Origin: a virus
Taxonomy: Duplodnaviria; Heunggongvirae; Uroviricota; Caudoviricetes
IMG/VR virus record: IMGVR_UViG_2778261567_000021
DNA length: 6,394 bases
Strand: one strand, 5' to 3'
Below, in pieces: positions 1-6,394 of the stretch. The notes beneath the pieces are model-generated. The model worked only from the letters and a program-made list of their open reading frames with translations. It made no database searches and was not told where the DNA came from. The position numbers and the translations under genes were made by a program. Each line of letters opens with the position of its first letter. Position 1 is the first letter of the stretch.

Positions 1-300
1 GATTACGCTGTCTGCGATAACCTGCCAGCCCTGCCGCGTTTCGCCGTTCTGGCCTGTCCACTGGCTTACCTGCATGTTACCCGCCACGCTCACCAGCTCG
101 CCTTTGCGGTGTTTTGCCAGTGCGTCGGCCTGTCTGCCAAACGCCAGGACGGATAACCACATCGTCGCCGTTCCGTCATCAGCCTGGCTGCATGTCAGGG
201 GAACCGCCATACTCGCCATCGTCATTTGTGTGCCCTTGCTGGTGGTCTTTAACTGTGGGTCAGCCACCAGCCGCCCGTAAGCCGCTATCTGTGCTGTCAT
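1..300 (-). CDS. ssb: SSB-like OB-fold single-stranded DNA-binding protein (N-terminal 100 aa; continues beyond the window)
   Basis: Translated by hand from the minus strand (not in the ORF track because it runs off the edge): MTAQIAAYGRLVADPQLKTTSKGTQMTMASMAVPLTCSQADDGTATMWLSVLAFGRQADALAKHRKGELVSVAGNMQVSQWTGQNGETRQGWQVIADSVI… This is colinear with the E. coli SSB OB-fold as recalled from memory (…GNLGQDPEVR…; …[43 protein letters not shown]…). The plus-strand ORFs 74..280 and 114..302 are antisense shadows. Confidence 0.6.
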   Translation of the reverse strand, partial: MTAQIAAYGRLVADPQLKTTSKGTQMTMASMAVPLTCSQADDGTATMWLSVLAFGRQADALAKHRKGELVSVAGNMQVSQWTGQNGETRQGWQVIADSVI

Positions 301-575
301 GATTCCACCTCTACGTTTTTAACGTTGATGGTTGTCACCTGTTCAGCTTCCGCAATCTCCCGCTCTGTCAGCGTGGCAAAATTTGCCGCCGTCGTGGTCA
401 TGAATGCGCTTATCAGTTCGGGATGTGCTTTCGCGTATCCTTCCCCCGCGTGGCGGTCTATCGTTCTGATTGCCACCTTTAAAGCGTGCTCTGTCATGTC
501 TAACGCGCGATATTTCGGTTCTGTTCTGTCTCTGCGTTTTTTGAGTGATTTATTAAATTTCCCTGAAGTGTGCAT
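297..575 (-). CDS. Hypothetical protein (92 aa), ATGA-coupled to the downstream SSB-like gene
   Basis: ATG at 575 with GAGGGGG about 10 nt upstream. Its stop TGA (297-299) overlaps the ATG (298-300) of the next minus-strand ORF. Product MHTSGKFNKSLKKRRDRTEPKYRALDMTEHALKVAIRTIDRHAGEGYAKAHPELISAFMTTT… No family recognised. Confidence 0.5.
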   Translation of the reverse strand: MHTSGKFNKSLKKRRDRTEPKYRALDMTEHALKVAIRTIDRHAGEGYAKAHPELISAFMTTTAANFATLTEREIAEAEQVTTINVKNVEVES

Positions 576-623
576 ATTTATTTTTACCCCCTCGTTTAAA
601 AAGTTTTGAGTTGTGCCTCCCCT

Positions 624-849
624 TGTCTACCTTATCTACCTTAGTGGCCCTCATGCCAGTAATGGCGCGGCTTTCAGCGGGGTAGAGTGCTTTTATCCGC
701 TATCTACCCCGTGTCTACCTCCCTGTCTGATTCAGGTAAAATCAGGTAGAGAGGGTAGATAGTGGGTAGACAGTAAAAAAAGGCTATCTACCTAACTTAA
801 TGCACTGAATTAAATGTATCTTTCTTTACTCAGGTAGACAGGGTAGACA
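624..849. repeat. Iteron cluster: about 11 copies of 8-bp T(A/G)TCTACC / GGTAGA(C/T/G)A in both orientations; putative origin of replication
   Basis: Direct copies at 624-631, 633-640, 702-709, 712-719 and 785-792. Inverted copies at 681-687, 745-752, 754-761, 765-772, 833-840 and 842-849. Spacing is often 9-11 bp (one helical turn). A-rich/AT-rich stretches lie at 771-780 and 793-830. The cluster is immediately 3' of the primase/helicase gene. Confidence 0.6.
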
Positions 850-863
850 GCAATTACAAAAAA

Positions 864-2618
864 TTATAAAAACGCGTCGCACTCGTCTGTTGTTATTGCG
901 TTAGTCTGCGTTACTCCCTTAACTTTCCGCGTAATATATTCATGTCCGTAAACTTTCGCGGCTGGCTTCATAGCCTTGCCAAAGTCATTTACGTTTAGCG
1001 GTTTGCTCCTGCCTGCGTACGCCATAAACGCCAGATAGACGCGGTAAAGGCTGTTTCTGGTCGTGTACTTCACTGAATCGCCACCGCCGCCCATCATCAG
1101 GCCGCGTGCTTCCTCCAGAAAATTCAGGAACTGGCAAAACTCAATAACCGGATCCGTCTGTTGCTTTATTGCCAGAGCTTCATCACCGTCACGCTGTTCC
1201 AGTAGTAAAGCCCGTGCTTTCTCAGAGTCGGTAAAGTTCGCCAGCAATCGGCGGATAATGACAGGGATTTCAGCCGCAATCTTTTCCGGTAGCTCCCTGT
1301 CTTTTTCGGCCTCACTGACGATATTGTCGAAACGGAAAATCACGCGACGACGTGCCACACCTCCGGCCCGTTCGGTGAATATCATCGGGTTGTTGTTGGT
1401 CGCCAGCACCACCGCCCTGATTACCGCCGTAAAACGCTTTTCATATTTCGGGTTAATTTCCACGGGGTCACCGCCCGTGATTTTCTTGATGCCCGTTCCT
1501 TCGCCTGTATATTTCGGCTGGTCAGCCAGGACGATAAGGCGACTCCCGACAACCTGCGCACGTCCACCAGCATCATCAAGCGATGTCATTTCAGCGCTTA
1601 CCGTGTTCTGTTTCCCTGCCAGAAGGCTGGCTATGTGTGTGAATGTACTTTTACCGCTCCCGCCGTCTCCGGTGGCCTCAATAAACATCTGCCAGTCGTA
1701 CCGGTTCGCCATAATCATGTACAGCGCGGCACATATCCGCATCATCTTGCGCGGGTCTTTTCCGGCTGCGTGCTCAAGCCATTTATGAAAGTTTGGCGCG
1801 TTATCGCGGATGTTCTCCCCTGGTGCTGGTGGCGTGTACTCAATACCGTTGTGCGTGGTGATCCAGTTCTCCGGCGTGTGCGGGGAAAATTCCCCCGTTT
1901 TCAGGTCAAGCGCACCATTGGCAAACGGCAGCAAATCGCCGGACGGCTCGCCCATTGGTTCGGCAATAACTTTTAACGCTTCCACGGCGTTATTGATTAC
2001 GCGCTTGCTGAAAGTGGCCCTGTGCTCTGAATAGATCGCCACCATTTCGCGGCTAAGTTCCATTGTGCTGACCGGACACCATACCCCGCCGCGCCATACG
2101 TGAACGATTTCACTTTCAGGATGCACGCAAACGCCATCAAATCGTCCGGCAAGAAGTTGAGCGCGCTCACTGTCCGCCATCTGCGAAAGTTGCGCCTTTT
2201 GCTTTACAGGAAGCTCAATAACCAGCCCATCAGAAAGATTCTGGCGCTCACTGGCCAGATATTCGCGCCAGTTCTCCACCTTCTGACCGTGCATACCATC
2301 AGGGTAAAAATTTGCATCCTGTACGCCTGCCGCCGCCAGCTTCTGACCAATCGCCTTTATCATTACTGGCGCAAGATATCCGGCCCTGAATATGCGCACG
2401 GATTTTCTGCCTTCCGGCACAATTTGCAGCTTATCCAGTTCTGATAACTGCTGCTCCCCAAGCCACACAGGAGGCTCATTATCTCCGGCCATACGCGCGT
2501 CATGTTCCTGCCATTGTTTCGCGTGTGACCAGGCATCACTACCCGCAAAAATAATGACTTCTGTTTCTTTGTGTTTTATGCCGCGTGGCTGCTGTTTTAC
2601 GTTCGGTGCCAGTTTCAT
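864..2618 (-). CDS. Phage/plasmid primase-helicase, P4-alpha family (D5_N-like region + SF3-type P-loop NTPase), 584 aa
   Basis: 584-aa ORF with Walker A GDGGSGKST and a Walker B-like hhhhD motif (RLIVLADQ) in the central/C-terminal part, as in the P4-alpha / poxvirus D5 primase C-terminal NTPase family. The N-terminal about 250 aa is a candidate primase domain. It is followed immediately by an iteron cluster, consistent with a pri-rep initiator and its ori. Confidence 0.88.
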   Translation of the reverse strand: MKLAPNVKQQPRGIKHKETEVIIFAGSDAWSHAKQWQEHDARMAGDNEPPVWLGEQQLSELDKLQIVPEGRKSVRIFRAGYLAPVMIKAIGQKLAAAGVQDANFYPDGMHGQKVENWREYLASERQNLSDGLVIELPVKQKAQLSQMADSERAQLLAGRFDGVCVHPESEIVHVWRGGVWCPVSTMELSREMVAIYSEHRATFSKRVINNAVEALKVIAEPMGEPSGDLLPFANGALDLKTGEFSPHTPENWITTHNGIEYTPPAPGENIRDNAPNFHKWLEHAAGKDPRKMMRICAALYMIMANRYDWQMFIEATGDGGSGKSTFTHIASLLAGKQNTVSAEMTSLDDAGGRAQVVGSRLIVLADQPKYTGEGTGIKKITGGDPVEINPKYEKRFTAVIRAVVLATNNNPMIFTERAGGVARRRVIFRFDNIVSEAEKDRELPEKIAAEIPVIIRRLLANFTDSEKARALLLEQRDGDEALAIKQQTDPVIEFCQFLNFLEEARGLMMGGGGDSVKYTTRNSLYRVYLAFMAYAGRSKPLNVNDFGKAMKPAAKVYGHEYITRKVKGVTQTNAITTDECDAFL

Positions 2619-2914
2619 TTTTTGCCCCTGAATCCGTTAATCATGTTTTTCATCTTCTGAATATTGGCGCGTGCTTTCTCCCTGCTGGTGGGCACGTTAC
2701 GCGGTACTGCCTGCACAAGAGAAAAATCACGCCGGAACTGATAAACAGGCATCACGCAATCATATTCGTAACCTTCACGGCGGTAAGTTACGCACCGTCC
2801 CGCCACGCCCTTAATCATTACCGTGCCGCCGTACTGGTCGCGGTAAATATCACCGCGCGTAAATTTAGGGTGAGTGTTGCCACTGGCAGTTAAGCCAGAA
2901 TATTTAAATTTCAT
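2615..2914 (-). CDS. Hypothetical basic protein (99 aa), translationally coupled to the primase
   Basis: ATG at 2914 with GGAG about 11 nt upstream. Its stop TGA (2615-2617) overlaps the primase ATG (2616-2618) as ATGA. Product MKFKYSGLTASGNTHPKFTRGDIYRDQYGGTVMIKGVAGRCVTYRREGYEYDCVMPVYQFRRDF… No family recognised. Confidence 0.55.
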   Translation of the reverse strand: MKFKYSGLTASGNTHPKFTRGDIYRDQYGGTVMIKGVAGRCVTYRREGYEYDCVMPVYQFRRDFSLVQAVPRNVPTSREKARANIQKMKNMINGFRGKK

Positions 2915-2919
2915 TATTT

Positions 2920-3153
2920 TTATTCTCCGGTGTGCTGTTCGTTATATCTGTCGTGCAATTGGTCTATTTCTTGTAGTTCCATTATTACAGGCTCAAGAAG
3001 CGTTATTAATGCCGTGACAATTCTTGATTTTTGTTTGTCGCGTTCATTGTCGCCAAGTGTTTCAAGCCATATGCGCAATATTTCCATCATATTTTCACTG
3101 TGAGAAAGTGCAAGAAATACGCGATCTGTTGTTTCGTGGTAAATATCACGCAT
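2920..3153 (-). CDS. Hypothetical protein (77 aa)
   Basis: ATG at 3153 lies 1 nt after the previous stop, with a GGGG-rich sequence upstream. Acidic product MRDIYHETTDRVFLALSHSENMMEILRIWLETLGDNERDKQKSRIVTALITLLEPVIMELQEIDQLHDRYNEQHTGE. Co-oriented and tightly spaced within the operon. Confidence 0.5.
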   Translation of the reverse strand: MRDIYHETTDRVFLALSHSENMMEILRIWLETLGDNERDKQKSRIVTALITLLEPVIMELQEIDQLHDRYNEQHTGE

Positions 3154-3154
3154 A

Positions 3155-3376
3155 TTAATCCCCGTCCGTCGCTTTTCTTAAAATAACCTCTGTCACGAAA
3201 TCAGCATAGTTAGCGGCAATATCAAGAATATTTAGCCCTGTATCTCTGTGCTCATCAGTGCAAAGAAAGAAAAAAGCCACCCGCATAATTTCAGATATTG
3301 ACGAAAGCGCATCAGCCGCATCATCAGGAACGCCGGAAAATTCTTGTTTCAGGGAATTAAAACGATCATCACGCAT
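3155..3376 (-). CDS. Hypothetical protein (73 aa); possibly the C-terminal part of a protein fused with 3349..3609
   Basis: ATG at 3376 lies 2 nt after the G9 run, which could double as a G-rich SD. Product MRDDRFNSLKQEFSGVPDDAADALSSISEIMRVAFFFLCTDEHRDTGLNILDIAANYADFVTEVILRKATDGD. Its stop TAA (3155-3157) is 1 nt from the next start. Confidence 0.5.
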   Translation of the reverse strand: MRDDRFNSLKQEFSGVPDDAADALSSISEIMRVAFFFLCTDEHRDTGLNILDIAANYADFVTEVILRKATDGD

Positions 3377-3609
3377 AACCCCCCCCCATTTTCACAATCA
3401 GCAATCAGGATAGCTTTGGCCTCATTCAGCGCCATATCAGCACTAAGTTGCATAACCGCCAGCGAATGAGGAACGAAAGCCCCTGCATATTCTGTTTCAC
3501 TGGTGGCGTGCTTATGCGCCCTGTCAGCAATAACAGAAATATCAATAAGCGCGTGCATCAGCGTAGTGAGCGCGGCGGCTGCTGCGTCCGGTGTGGTTTT
3601 ATTGCACAT
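3349..3609 (-). CDS. Hypothetical protein (86 aa); possibly the N-terminal part of a longer protein split at a homopolymer
   Basis: ATG at 3609 with a strong SD (AGGAGG 6 nt upstream, lying inside the preceding ORF). The C-terminus (…ENGGGLCVMIVLIP) is encoded across the G9 run and overlaps the next ORF by 28 nt in another frame. Confidence 0.5.
   Translation of the reverse strand: MCNKTTPDAAAAALTTLMHALIDISVIADRAHKHATSETEYAGAFVPHSLAVMQLSADMALNEAKAILIADCENGGGLCVMIVLIP
3379..3387. repeat. Homopolymeric tract C9 (G9 on the coding strand) at the junction of two ORFs
   Basis: Nine consecutive C at 3379-3387. The minus-strand ORFs 3349..3609 and 3155..3376 differ by one frame across this tract. 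Confidence 0.9.
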
Positions 3610-3805
3610 GGCACACCTCCTGACGAATACGGGCGGCGAATACCATCACGCAGCCAGCCGGGGATTGCAGGCGTGCTTCCTGTTCGCTGGCGGCCTCAAT
3701 GGTAATCACGCGCGGTTGTGCCGTGCTCAGGGCGATAAAACGCCAGATGTATTTATTCAGGTTGTGCGAGTCCCGCCCTTGCGGGTGTGTGGTATGATTT
3801 AACAT
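3599..3805 (-). CDS. Hypothetical protein (68 aa), first gene of the minus-strand operon
   Basis: The ORF track shows a 305-aa ORF 3599..4516, but only the 3' part is credible. The internal ATG at 3805 is preceded by GAGGT 5 nt upstream (minus strand CGAGGTAGCT-ATG). Product MLNHTTHPQGRDSHNLNKYIWRFIALSTAQPRVITIEAASEQEARLQSPAGCVMVFAARIRQEVCHVQ. Its stop overlaps the start of the next ORF by 11 nt. Confidence 0.5.
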   Translation of the reverse strand: MLNHTTHPQGRDSHNLNKYIWRFIALSTAQPRVITIEAASEQEARLQSPAGCVMVFAARIRQEVCHVQ

Positions 3806-3901
3806 AGCTACCTCGATACGCTTTCTATCGTTGGTGGTTAGAAGCCCGGTTAGTGTTAGCGCACTGCCGGGTTTCGTCGTTTCTGCACCTTGCATCAACA
3901 A

Positions 3902-3955
3902 GGTGTTGAACACCAATTTAAGCCCTGGTGTTAAACACGTCAAGTGTTGAACACT
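3902..3955. promoter_or_regulatory. Three palindromic operator-like sites GTGTT-N-AACAC in a divergent promoter region
   Basis: GGTGTTGAACACC (3902-3914, 13-bp palindrome), GTGTTAAACAC (3928-3938) and AGTGTTGAACACT (3943-3955, 13-bp palindrome). An extra AGTGTT half-site lies near 3851-3856. They sit between divergently oriented genes (minus-strand ORF starting at 3805, plus-strand RHH ORF starting at 4005). Confidence 0.55.
3916..3943 (-). promoter_or_regulatory. Candidate sigma70 promoter for the minus-strand replication operon
   Basis: On the minus strand: TTGACG (3943..3938), 16-nt spacer containing operator 2, TTAAAT (3921..3916). It lies back-to-back with the plus-strand promoter. Assigned by eye only. 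Confidence 0.3.
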
Positions 3956-3975
3956 TATTTTTTTTCCTGCATACT
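3947..3975 (+). promoter_or_regulatory. Candidate sigma70 promoter for the RHH cassette
   Basis: TTGAAC (3947-3952), 17-nt spacer, CATACT (3970-3975). The -35 element lies inside operator 3. Assigned by eye only. Confidence 0.3.
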
Positions 3976-4004
3976 GCATTTGTTTTTTGTAAGGGGTACA
4001 CAAC

Positions 4005-4184
4005 ATGGCGACAAAAGCAGTAAACGCAAAATCACAAACAGTTGCGGCAAGGGTTCCGCATGAAGTTATGAACAATGTTGAGGCGGTAAAAATGCCTGGT
4101 GAAAGTACAGGGCAGTTTGTAACAGCAGCATTAAAGCGAGAAGTTGAATACCGCCAGCGTCGCAAGGCCAAAGAGCAGGAATAA
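4005..4184 (+). CDS. Small ribbon-helix-helix (CopG/Arc/MetJ-like) DNA-binding protein, 59 aa
   Basis: Absent from the ORF track, presumably for being under the length cut-off. ATG at 4005 is preceded by AAGGGG at 3991-3996 (8-nt spacing); stop TAA at 4182-4184. Product MATKAVNAKSQTVAARVPHEVMNNVEAVKMPGESTGQFVTAALKREVEYRQRRKAKEQE shows the RHH signature: a beta-strand (AARVPHEV), helix, G-x-S/T turn (GESTGQF), and second helix (VTAALKREV). It lies immediately downstream of the palindromic operators. Confidence 0.55.
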   Translation: MATKAVNAKSQTVAARVPHEVMNNVEAVKMPGESTGQFVTAALKREVEYRQRRKAKEQE

Positions 4185-4241
4185 CCATCACCAGCGCCGT
4201 GGTGTAAGGTATTACGGCGCATTGCTATGCAGGACAACACA

Positions 4242-4415
4242 ATGACCGATAAAGAATTGACCAAAACATTATCACCGGCACGGAAAAGACGGCGCAGAAA
4301 GATAGAGCATGAATCAGAAAGATTCGCGCCATGTGCTTTTGCCCTTGAGCAATTCCTTAAAGAGTACAGGGAAACGCGCCCATTGCAGGTATGGCAACGA
4401 ACTGAACCAGACTGA
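4242..4415 (+). CDS. Hypothetical small basic protein (57 aa; KRRRRK motif)
   Basis: ORF track gives 4227..4415. The second in-frame ATG at 4242 is preferred because AGGA at 4230-4233 lies 8 nt upstream. Product MTDKELTKTLSPARKRRRRKIEHESERFAPCAFALEQFLKEYRETRPLQVWQRTEPD. It follows the RHH ORF on the same strand and is closed by the terminator at 4480-4508. No family recognised. Confidence 0.4.
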   Translation: MTDKELTKTLSPARKRRRRKIEHESERFAPCAFALEQFLKEYRETRPLQVWQRTEPD

Positions 4416-4479
4416 TTGCATTGCCCACCAGCCTGATAGCGGCTATCATCCCCGTGCTTATGTTTAGTGTTTTCCCATT

Positions 4480-4508
4480 GGCGACCGCCCCCGGTCGCCT
4501 TTGTTTTA
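4480..4508 (+). terminator. Rho-independent terminator of the plus-strand small-ORF cassette
   Basis: Perfect 8-bp GC-rich stem GGCGACCG (4480-4487) / CGGTCGCC (4492-4499) with a 4-nt loop CCCC, followed by TTTGTTTTA on the plus strand. On the minus strand the hairpin is followed by AAUGGGAAA, so it is mainly unidirectional. Confidence 0.65.
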
Positions 4509-4526
4509 TGTGTCATATGCTCCCCT

Positions 4527-4736
4527 TTACACTGCCTTACCTGAATTAATGCGATCCCGGCTTTTAACCCATTCCATAACCTCGGACAGCAGCCACCCTA
4601 CAGAACGACCGCCCAGATTAAGACGTGACGGAAAGCTCCCTTTTTTCTCCAGTTCGTAGCGTGTAGTGCGACACACTCCAGTTAACTTACGACATTCATC
4701 CTCACGGATTACGCGATCTTCATTTATTTCACGCAT
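4527..4736 (-). CDS. alpA: AlpA-family (Vis/Xis-like) transcriptional regulator / excisionase-type HTH protein, 69 aa
   Basis: The 69-aa product MREINEDRVIREDECRKLTGVCRTTRYELEKKGSFPSRLNLGGRSVGWLLSEVMEWVKSRDRINSGKAV matches the AlpA pattern (…TG.sR.T.Y…P….lG.rsVGW…E…W, about 70 aa). The ORF track extends it to 4823 with a GTG start (98 aa), but the extension is AT-rich and AlpA proteins are about 70 aa, so the ATG at 4736 is preferred. It sits directly downstream of int in the same orientation. Confidence 0.75.
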   Translation of the reverse strand: MREINEDRVIREDECRKLTGVCRTTRYELEKKGSFPSRLNLGGRSVGWLLSEVMEWVKSRDRINSGKAV

Positions 4737-5155
4737 ACAAAAACCTACATAAAAATTACGTATATAAACTTTTCTCTTAGCTGTAGATATATGAGATCGG
4801 ATATTACTTAGATTCTTTTTCACCTCTTAAATTAAAAACACAACCATGCTAAAGGCTTTGTTCGCTAAGGTTCGTAGAAGCTCGTTAGTGTTTAAAATCG
4901 TGTCACGAGTTTTTAAGCGACGCAACAAAAAATGTCGTCATTTGGCATGACACCTTAATTACCTCATTAAAAACAAATAGATAAACTATCAGGTGTTGGA
5001 ACAATCAAGAAACAGAGAATAAGAACTCAGAAGAAGACATTTCAATTTTTTTCGATAGTTGACACATATAAAGAGAAGATATTTGCAGATATTCCCCGAT
5101 ATTCTAAGATCTATTCACGGCTGTAATCTCTTAAAGAAAAAACAGCCGTAATTTG

Positions 5156-6394
5156 TCAAGAATTTTGGGGGTAAATTCGCGGGGTCATAACAACGATTTT
5201 TTCATCATTGTTCTGGAGAAGCTCGAGACGGTCTACCCATAGATTAAGAGCATCACGTTTTGCATCAAGGTAGCGGGAGTGGTTATAGACTCGTTGCATC
5301 CCTGGCATCTGGTGGGCTGTAAGCTGCTCGACAATATGCGGATCCACGCCTAAATCGTTCAGCATGGTTGTAAATGTGTGCCGGATATCGTGTAACGTCC
5401 AGGGGGCTTGATTAATTCGTCTGTGCGCTGTTCTTCCGTACTCTGCTACCGAAGATTGTCCTTTCAGTTCACCAAGCAATAAGCCTGAGTGTCTGTTCTG
5501 CTCCACCAGTTGCGTGACGAACGGCAAAATGCTTTCCGGTATTGGCCTGAATATGGCGACCTTCGTTTTGCTGTGCTCCTTCGGTACTGTCCAGAGCATT
5601 TCTTTAAAATCCCACTCCTGCACCTCAGAGCGCCTTAGCTCAGTGGTACGGCATCCAAAAACAATCAGGAGGCGAATTAGGGCGCTGTAGTATGGCGGGA
5701 ATATTTTGTCATCCAGGGCGCGGAGTAATTCCCCAAGCTCCTTATTTGTTAGTACGCGCTCGCTCACTTCTGCTTTTTTTCCCACATCACCGACAACCAT
5801 ATCATCAAGAACGTTGCTGATTGCGTATCGTCGTTTTCGGCAGTACTTAAGCGCCTGTTTGCATACCTGTAGCAAAAATCCGGCAGATACAGGGCTTCGC
5901 TTTGCCATCTGGTCAAAACATGCCAACCAGTGCCGTAGCTCGCATTTTTCCAACGGCAAAGCGCCAATCTGGCTGATTATGTGTTTATTGATCCGGCTTT
6001 TCAGTGATTCGTAGTCAGTGCGCTTTTCCTTTGCATACGATTCAAGCCAGTAAGTGAGCGCTTCCTTAACTGTCACGGGGGCTAACGCATCCTGTACAGC
6101 ACGATTAAGCTCATAGCGCGGATTTTTCCCCTCAGCCAGCCAGGCGCGACACTGTGCTGCTTTTTCCCTGGCTGCTTTCAGGCTCAGATCGGGATAATTG
6201 CCCAGTCTCAGACGTTCCGGTGATACCTGCCTACCAGTTCCGGCCCTGTAAGTGAAATACCAGGTTAACAGGCCGCTGGTGGAATGTCTTACGCTAAGAT
6301 TGCCACCGTCATTAAAAAAGGCGTTTTTTGTGGTTGGTGATCCGCTTAATTTTCGTAAAAGAGTGTCGCTAAGTCTATGAATTGCGCTGCTCAT
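5156..6394 (-). CDS. int: Tyrosine site-specific integrase, P4 family (412 aa)
   Basis: ORF of 412 aa. The C-terminal catalytic region carries the HxxR box (HDIRHTF) and the tyrosine nucleophile motif (RVYNHSRY). The N-terminal region (GNLSVRHSTSGLLTWYFTYR...) resembles the arm-binding domain of P4/CP4-57-type integrases, recalled from memory. The ATG sits exactly at the window edge, so an upstream extension cannot be excluded. Confidence 0.93.
   Translation of the reverse strand: MSSAIHRLSDTLLRKLSGSPTTKNAFFNDGGNLSVRHSTSGLLTWYFTYRAGTGRQVSPERLRLGNYPDLSLKAAREKAAQCRAWLAEGKNPRYELNRAVQDALAPVTVKEALTYWLESYAKEKRTDYESLKSRINKHIISQIGALPLEKCELRHWLACFDQMAKRSPVSAGFLLQVCKQALKYCRKRRYAISNVLDDMVVGDVGKKAEVSERVLTNKELGELLRALDDKIFPPYYSALIRLLIVFGCRTTELRRSEVQEWDFKEMLWTVPKEHSKTKVAIFRPIPESILPFVTQLVEQNRHSGLLLGELKGQSSVAEYGRTAHRRINQAPWTLHDIRHTFTTMLNDLGVDPHIVEQLTAHQMPGMQRVYNHSRYLDAKRDALNLWVDRLELLQNNDEKIVVMTPRIYPQNS

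Follow-up and report, generated by a model that had tools for sequence, protein, structure and literature searches.

Homopolymer tracts at gene junctions

The junction of frdB and frdC in M. bovis carries a tract of seven G. An eighth G leads to an FrdB-FrdC fusion and a ninth to a larger fusion, and such variants are common among isolates (PMC12263978). We describe a related situation in a stretch of DNA of 6,394 nucleotides (nt) from a virus of the Caudoviricetes (IMG/VR record IMGVR_UViG_2778261567_000021), the whole of which is called the window in the following. Here a run of nine G (G9) lies on the minus strand at the boundary of two small open reading frames (ORFs), A and B, of a mobile satellite of Escherichia coli. 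The frd tract appears to be its closest analogue. In both cases a poly-G tract is located at a gene boundary, and its natural lengths decide between separate and in-frame fused products. In M. bovis, however, the reference state consists of separate subunits of a known enzyme, and a metabolic and virulence phenotype has been shown for the fusion. By contrast, A and B are function-unassigned proteins of a satellite, and all three frames are frequent. The locus is a slippage-polymorphic homopolymer at a gene junction, a kind that is already known, and adds an example from an E. coli mobile element to the few homopolymer tracts known to fuse and split neighbours. In the literature we found no paper that links satellites of the phage-inducible chromosomal island (PICI) type with such tracts or that describes the A and B genes.

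Other systems share some of these properties. In contingency loci such as the poly-G tracts of Neisseria, Haemophilus and Campylobacter, or the A9 tract in agt of phage T2, homopolymer slippage likewise shifts the frame reversibly, and the tracts are polymorphic among close relatives; homopolymer contingency loci were lately reported in the coliphages T2 and T4 (PMC12633550). Classical loci of this kind turn a gene ON or OFF with a frequency of 1e-2 to 1e-5 per generation. In the present locus, by contrast, B keeps its own start, so that slippage results in fusion and fission instead of ON and OFF, and the tract is stable among near-identical islands. Translationally coupled gene pairs (e.g., those overlapping in ATGA) resemble the locus in having a Shine-Dalgarno (SD) sequence inside the upstream ORF, an overlap of stop and start (ATGCGTGA with G8, 28 nt with G9) and two conserved genes. 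They differ from it in that the SD of B is a mutable homopolymer which also encodes the last residues of the upstream protein, and frame 0 is free of stops, so that slippage fuses the two. Finally, a slippery run, perfect re-pairing of the tRNA and an SD-like sequence are known from frameshift systems such as the G7/G8 runs of herpes simplex virus (HSV) thymidine kinase, A_AAA_AAG of dnaX and the SD-stimulated +1 shift of prfB. In the present locus, however, the shift needed is not conserved, a suitably spaced stimulator is lacking, and the product is directly encoded in many alleles.

The A/B junction

The first-pass annotation of the window, made from its letters, had drawn attention to the G9 run (C9 on the plus strand) and to two ORFs in different frames that overlap by 28 nt at this position. 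Both the run and the ORFs are present as described there. The junction consists of the following features:

3379 to 3387, minus strand: G9 homopolymer; its codons specify the Gly-Gly(-Gly) with which module A ends, and the ATG of module B follows 2 nt downstream
3349 to 3609, minus strand: ORF A, 86 amino acids (aa), comprising module A (residues 1-74), then GGG, then a 9-residue out-of-frame tail
3155 to 3376, minus strand: ORF B, identical with module B, 73 aa, with a separate ATG, which does not vary among the homologues
3349 to 3376, minus strand: 28 nt shared by A and B when the tract is G9; the stop codon of A (TGA) is at 3351-3349

The minus strand reads ...GAT TGT GAA AAT GGG GGG GGG TTA TGC GTG ATG..., with the nine G at 3387-3379. 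It is the sole run of nine or more G or C in the window; dinucleotide-preserving shuffles contain 0.02 such runs per window, and one was present in 4 of 200 shuffles.

The frame of ORF B relative to ORF A is -1, and the two are brought into one frame by the gain of one G, by the loss of two, or by a -1 ribosomal shift. The first-pass annotation had correctly seen that +1 G or -2 G would fuse them, but its estimate of about 159 aa for the fused protein is too long; the last nine residues of the 86-aa ORF (LCVMIVLIP) are an out-of-frame read-through of the 5' end of B that is specific to G9 alleles. The fused product has 151 aa with G10 and 150 aa with G7. The stop codon of A in G8 alleles is the TGA of ATGCGTGA (equivalent to positions 3371-3369 of the window), and the overlap of A and B is reduced to 8 nt.

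Among the PHROGs, ORF A matches phrog_5146 and phrog_2512, and ORF B matches phrog_24341. This database holds separate families for the fused form, for A and for B, with function unassigned in all of them, and neither A nor B has a match in Pfam or NCBIfam. An AlphaFold2 model from a 30-sequence alignment consists of helices throughout, interrupted at the GG linker, at a mean predicted local distance difference test score (pLDDT) of 57.5, i.e., of low confidence. The secondary structure of the same low-confidence model predicts a helical hairpin for residues 1-74 of module A.

We interpret G9 as probably being one heritable allele of a slippage-prone poly-G tract at the A/B boundary, in a common split state. 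The run would have two roles, providing both the C-terminal glycine codons of A and the SD sequence of B, and replication slippage would alter its length over short evolutionary times. As the modules are not separated by a stop codon in frame 0, three outcome states are expected. Tracts of G4, G7, G10 and G13 would result in a single A-GG-B fusion of 150-154 aa. With G8 and G11 the modules would be split, A ending in ...GGGYA with a stop that overlaps the start of B (ATGCGTGA), and with G6 and G9 they would likewise be split, A carrying the 9-residue tail and extending over the first 28 nt of B. When split from A, B would be made from its own start, probably coupled to the translation of A. 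The start codon of B is invariant in every copy, which suggests that both modules are produced at any length and that the frame is free to drift in a near-neutral manner. The G9 of the window calls for no recoding, repair or error.

Tract lengths among homologues

Tract lengths were surveyed at 126 homologous loci, in which the junction was located by a fixed sequence motif that matched essentially all protein-seeded loci with adjacent A and B. Metagenome contigs (n=52) were retrieved by pattern, allowing for any insert of 5-15 nt that starts with GGGGG. The IMG/VR loci were protein-seeded, and their ranking favours fused copies. The lengths are distributed as follows:

Metagenome contigs: G7 in 10, G8 in 27, G9 in 12, G10 in 1, interrupted in 2
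IMG/VR loci: G4 in 2, G7 in 23, G8 in 17, G9 in 12, G10 in 4, G11 in 2
IMG/VR loci with interrupted tracts: 8-mers in 4, 12-mers in 2

Homologues range from G4 to G13, and the tract is a pure homopolymer in about 90% of the loci. The distribution of lengths is unimodal at about 8, with neither a 3-periodicity nor an enrichment of in-frame lengths. In the metagenome contigs, which are the least biased sample, 11 of the 52 copies are in frame and 39 are out of frame. A tract of fixed length in homologous islands, which the first-pass annotation had named as an outcome that would speak against slippage, is therefore not what is found, as both fused and split forms occur. Slipped-strand phase variation, also proposed there, holds as length variation at the population level, including near-identical islands that differ in the tract only (see below).

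Both forms are likewise evident from finished genomes annotated with the Prokaryotic Genome Annotation Pipeline (PGAP). Fused copies, all with G7, are annotated as one hypothetical protein, 150 or 154 aa in length (L002, L003, L141), and split copies, with G8, G9 or GGGGGTGG, as two overlapping hypothetical proteins (L001, L004, L138-L140). A protein search with the fused sequence resulted in 499 matches, of which the best 120 are almost all E. coli proteins of 148-160 aa; the exceptions among these 120 are two partial sequences and three proteins of 224 aa. The fused proteins of 150-154 aa have the junctions EN-GG-VM (G7), EN-GGG-VM (G10) and EN-GGGG-VM (G13).

An exact look-up of the individual products located the 86-aa A of the window, i.e., the G9 form, on 179 contigs and 245 index blocks (NCBI, ENA, Logan). 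A sister G9 product is present on at least 1000 contigs and the G8 product (...GGGYA) on 523. Fused products were retrieved from 113, 129 and at least 1000 contigs, B of the window from 918, and a stably interrupted split form (GGGGGTGG) from 768. The G9 allele of A in the window is present in several island backbones and integration sites. A protein scan of GTDB genome contigs recovered one locus, from Shigella flexneri, with G8.

A second variable G tract (G8, G9, G10) was observed in another allele of the third small gene, which follows B (MDKIPFDV...AEQGG/DLFSAF...). It is located about 333 nt after the start of B in seven loci (L007, L020, L037, L038, L044, L130, L131), and its out-of-frame lengths truncate the third small gene. 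The allele of the window (2920-3153) has no such run.

Tempo of length change

Pairs of islands from all loci were compared over flanks of +/-2.5 kb; these pairs are phylogenetically non-independent. The tract differs in none of the 22 pairs with a flank divergence below 0.05%, in 5 of 9 pairs at 0.05-0.2%, in 8 of 11 at 0.2-0.5% and in 12 of 14 at 0.5-1% (25 of 34 pairs for 0.05-1% pooled). The finished genomes of E. coli 2018-166 (L138) and E. coli 2012EL-2448 (L139), from Switzerland and the USA, have no mismatch over 6544 nt, and G9 versus G8 is their sole difference. By a rough estimate, the length of the tract may change some 100-1000 times faster than a single nucleotide site. It is nevertheless reproducible among identical islands. 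Such a tempo is expected of an unconstrained G run of 8-9 nt in a mismatch-repair-proficient host, and is slower than that of Neisseria-type switches.

Constraint and modularity

Neither module A (74 codons up to the tract) nor module B (73 or 77 codons) is disrupted in any of the three frame classes, apart from a few truncations that are spread evenly over them. The pairwise ratio of nonsynonymous to synonymous substitution rates (dN/dS) amounts to 0.24 in A and to 0.36-0.38 in B, and is the same in fused-only, +1-only and +2-only alleles. These values average over frame states because the tract flips faster than substitutions accumulate. As most copies are split and B is under purifying selection, B would have to be made in the split states.

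The two modules also occur independently of each other. Module A stands alone in L111, L116, L119 and others, where it ends in ...ENGGGDYAK before the stop, with the interrupted run GGCGGGGGCGATTATG, and where an unrelated gene starts at an overlapping ATG. Module B stands alone in L103-L108, behind an unrelated gene of about 120 aa and with AGGGGGGTAAACATG, a textbook G-rich SD (G6). At this junction CAGGGGGGTAAACATG is found about 15 nt before the start of B (G6, split). A protein of 196 aa on 131 contigs (P0197) consists of the same unrelated upstream protein fused to B via G5 (G6 in L103-L108). Fusion by slippage therefore recurs at a different junction of module B.

The G run as probable Shine-Dalgarno sequence

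The ATG of B is kept in every copy, directly after the G run. Duplexes of the run with the anti-SD sequence are predicted at -11.6 to -12.7 kcal/mol, compared with -13.5 kcal/mol for a canonical SD. The role of the run as SD of the second ORF, which the first-pass annotation had offered as an alternative, is supported by this duplex of about -12 kcal/mol and by the stand-alone B, which also has G6 before its ATG. Two further features are centred on this region:

3347 to 3402, minus strand: frozen synonymous block, comprising A codons -5 to -1, the tract and B codons 1-10, from 69 protein-seeded loci
3351 to 3384, minus strand: predicted local RNA hairpin enclosing the ATG of B; one arm is UAAUUCCC in B codons 7-9, the other the 3' part of the run together with UUA

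Third-position diversity in the block is 0.00-0.02, in contrast to 0.3-0.5 elsewhere in A and B (69 protein-seeded loci; L057-L137). This pattern would indicate either constraint at the nucleotide level or a recombination linker centred on the tract. The block coincides both with the predicted hairpin and with the boundary of module reshuffling, and it may be accounted for by a hairpin for coupling, by a recombination linker or by selection for mutability. The local hairpin is predicted at about -12 kcal/mol with z scores of -1.3 to -2.1, and its arms display no covariation, because the block is invariant among homologues. In the context of B alone (L103) the 5' arm is a different one, UUCAGGGGG, which pairs with the overlapping UUCCCUGAA. 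According to the folding model, the candidate hairpin may occlude the SD of B until A is translated and in this way couple the translation of both. The 121 nt around the tract, folded in the search for a frameshift stimulator, are no more stable than shuffled sequences (z = +1.1).

Alternative explanations

Several points weigh against a near-neutral, slippage-prone tract with two modules expressed in every state. The samples surveyed are phylogenetically non-independent, surveillance sampling inflates certain allele counts, and homopolymer errors may be present in some long-read assemblies. Initiation at B, whether independent or coupled to A, is deduced from the sequence alone, and only the 5' part of a long run would be at a good SD spacing, because the ATG of B follows just 2 nt after the run. 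The G9 tail LCVMIVLIP could destabilise A, and for this reason the states need not be equivalent. In addition, simple neutrality predicts neither a tract without interruptions in about 90% of loci nor about 55 nt of frozen synonymous sites around it; both could be due to selection for mutability, to an RNA element or to recombination.

We also have to consider that the tract is an adaptive contingency locus, kept by selection as a stochastic switch between fused and split states (or of the dosage of B) and creating subpopulations that differ towards helper phages or the host. We regard this as unlikely. The purity of the tract amid a flanking synonymous diversity of 0.3-0.5 is in its favour, as are the roughly estimated 100-1000-fold excess of length changes over substitutions with the L138/L139 pair, the second variable tract (G8-G10) in the neighbouring gene of some islands, and the slip-fusion at another junction of module B (P0197). 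Contingency loci are moreover reported from coliphages (PMC12633550), and the 7G/8G/9G tract that fuses frdB and frdC in M. bovis has a phenotype (PMC12263978). However, tract lengths agree in 22 of 22 pairs less than 0.05% divergent, and one G9 product is found on at least 1000 contigs, so that switching cannot be very fast. The inferred rate suits ordinary slippage at an unconstrained run of G8-9 in a mismatch-repair-proficient host. Stably interrupted out-of-frame forms (GGGGGTGG) are widespread (768 contigs), and A and B belong to function-unassigned families with no phenotype attached. Slightly more doubtful is a specific version for satellites, in which slippage among G7, G8 and G9 would interconvert a two-domain protein and two separate proteins, the frozen block of about 55 nt and the hairpin would set the coupling, and the resulting subpopulations, heritable yet reversible, would sense, or interfere with, helper phages differently. 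If such a switch were true, it would be the first of its kind described in a PICI-type element, acting by fusion and fission instead of ON and OFF, and selection on the tract would extend contingency-locus biology to phage satellites. If, on the other hand, the tract is neutral, it is a clean example from nature of two modules, A and B, whose fused and split states are functionally interchangeable.

The remaining explanations were all listed in the first-pass annotation. Programmed recoding, by which the G9 allele would yield a defined fraction of fusion through a -1 slip on G_GGG_GGG or through a polymerase that adds one G, as in dnaX or insertion sequence (IS) elements, is improbable. It is true that G_GGG_GGG in AAT GGG GGG GGG TTA formally fits X_XXY_YYZ in the zero frame and that tRNA-Gly can re-pair; furthermore, GGG is a rare codon and an SD-like run is a known type of stimulator. 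The arrangement is, however, not conserved: the fusion is directly encoded by G7 and G10 and requires a ribosomal shift of +1 in G8 and of -1 in G9, with all frames being common, and the base change required of transcriptional slippage is likewise not fixed (none in G7 and G10, -1 or +2 in G8, +1 or -2 in G9). Furthermore, the 121-nt fold (z = +1.1) gives no significant downstream structure, the sole local hairpin has the run as its 5' arm instead of standing 5-9 nt after it, and B has its own start codon. Bacterial transcriptional slippage is documented mainly at A/T runs (PMC1088944), which also counts against a polymerase slipping on G. HSV thymidine kinase is rescued by low-level frameshifting on a G run (PMC5009743), which can be cited in favour of recoding, and by analogy incidental slippage at a low level may occur on the present run. 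A recent inactivating frameshift, with the 150-aa fusion as the functional gene and the window as a decaying pseudogene, is very improbable. It would agree with the abundance of fused homologues of 150-154 aa and with the hydrophobic nonsense tail that G9 adds to A, but out-of-frame copies form the majority of the pattern-retrieved metagenome contigs (39 of 52), A and B are free of secondary disruptions and have the same dN/dS in split and fused alleles, both modules are independent genes elsewhere, and several island backbones carry the G9 allele. Least probable of all is a sequencing or assembly error that conceals an in-frame tract. Long-read platforms are prone to errors in homopolymers of 8-9 nt, and a single G is all that distinguishes L138 from L139. 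The exact G9-specific protein is nevertheless found on 179 contigs and 245 index blocks, and an independent assembly (L149) matches positions 1-3643 of the window at 99.97% without gaps, G9 included, which together make an error in the window very unlikely; the agreement of tract length in 22 of 22 near-identical island pairs points in the same direction. In annotation, the locus should accordingly be read as a length-polymorphic junction, encoding either one protein of 150-154 aa or two of about 75 aa, and not as a pseudogene or an assembly error.

Island context

The remaining features of the window are:

5156 to 6394, minus strand: tyrosine integrase at the end of the island (ORF and annotation of homologues)
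4527 to 4823, minus strand: AlpA-family regulator (Pfam Phage_AlpA)
4005 to 4184, plus strand: YlcI/YnfO-family gene (annotation of homologues)
3599 to 3805, minus strand: Icd-like gene, 68 aa (NF033153, E=3e-19; PGAP annotation of homologues), overlapping the start of A by 11 nt
2920 to 3153, minus strand: third small gene, 77 aa, phrog_2196, directly after B
2615 to 2914, minus strand: DUF4222 gene, forming the satellite replication module with the primase
864 to 2618, minus strand: D5_N/DUF5906 primase, 584 aa (Pfam D5_N/DUF5906/Pox_D5), of the replication module

Integrase, AlpA-type regulator and primase stand in the order of PICIs. The window ends before the packaging module, and the capsid genes are known from the relatives L097 and L001 alone. 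SSB, Phage_cap_E and HDPD are present in L097 (96% identity over 3.6 kb), and a major capsid gene in L001. As relatives, on contigs of about 10-14 kb, run on into SSB, PerC, a lambda-E-type major capsid protein and a gpD-type decoration protein, the element looks like a capsid-forming PICI-type (cf-PICI-like) satellite of E. coli, judged by gene content. The cf-PICIs of Enterobacteriaceae have int, AlpA and primase in common with it, as well as, in its close relatives, SSB, PerC, the lambda-E-type capsid and the gpD-type decoration protein; in contrast to them, the window itself stops short of the packaging module.

Searched with megablast, 1513 of 5426 complete E. coli genomes match the A-B region, which flags a conserved, uncharacterised two-module pair in about 28% of them. 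No match was found among 50,697 phage records with tblastn and megablast. For the window as a whole, the complete E. coli genomes contain no identical island, the best match being a 95% mosaic, and the window is closer to the draft assemblies L149 and L147 than to complete genomes.

The island of the window is itself a mosaic. Its integrase side (3062-6394) is 99.2% identical to L147, and positions 1-3643 match L149. Alignments with many loci break at 3431, inside A and about 45 nt before the tract, or at 3643, inside the Icd-like gene; the breakpoints listed are 3429-3431, 3643 and 3906. An ORF of 305 aa at 3599-4516 on the minus strand, from the mechanical ORF list, is probably not a gene, as over this interval homologues have just the 68-aa Icd-like gene at the 3' end (3599-3805) and the YlcI/YnfO-family gene on the opposite strand (4005-4184). 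The replication gene that follows DUF4222 is exchangeable among otherwise similar islands, as evident by comparing L002, L003 and L140-L142 with the window. Its variants are the D5_N/DUF5906 primase of the window, a RepA-family helicase or AAA ATPase of about 466 aa, and a DUF927 protein of 710 aa.

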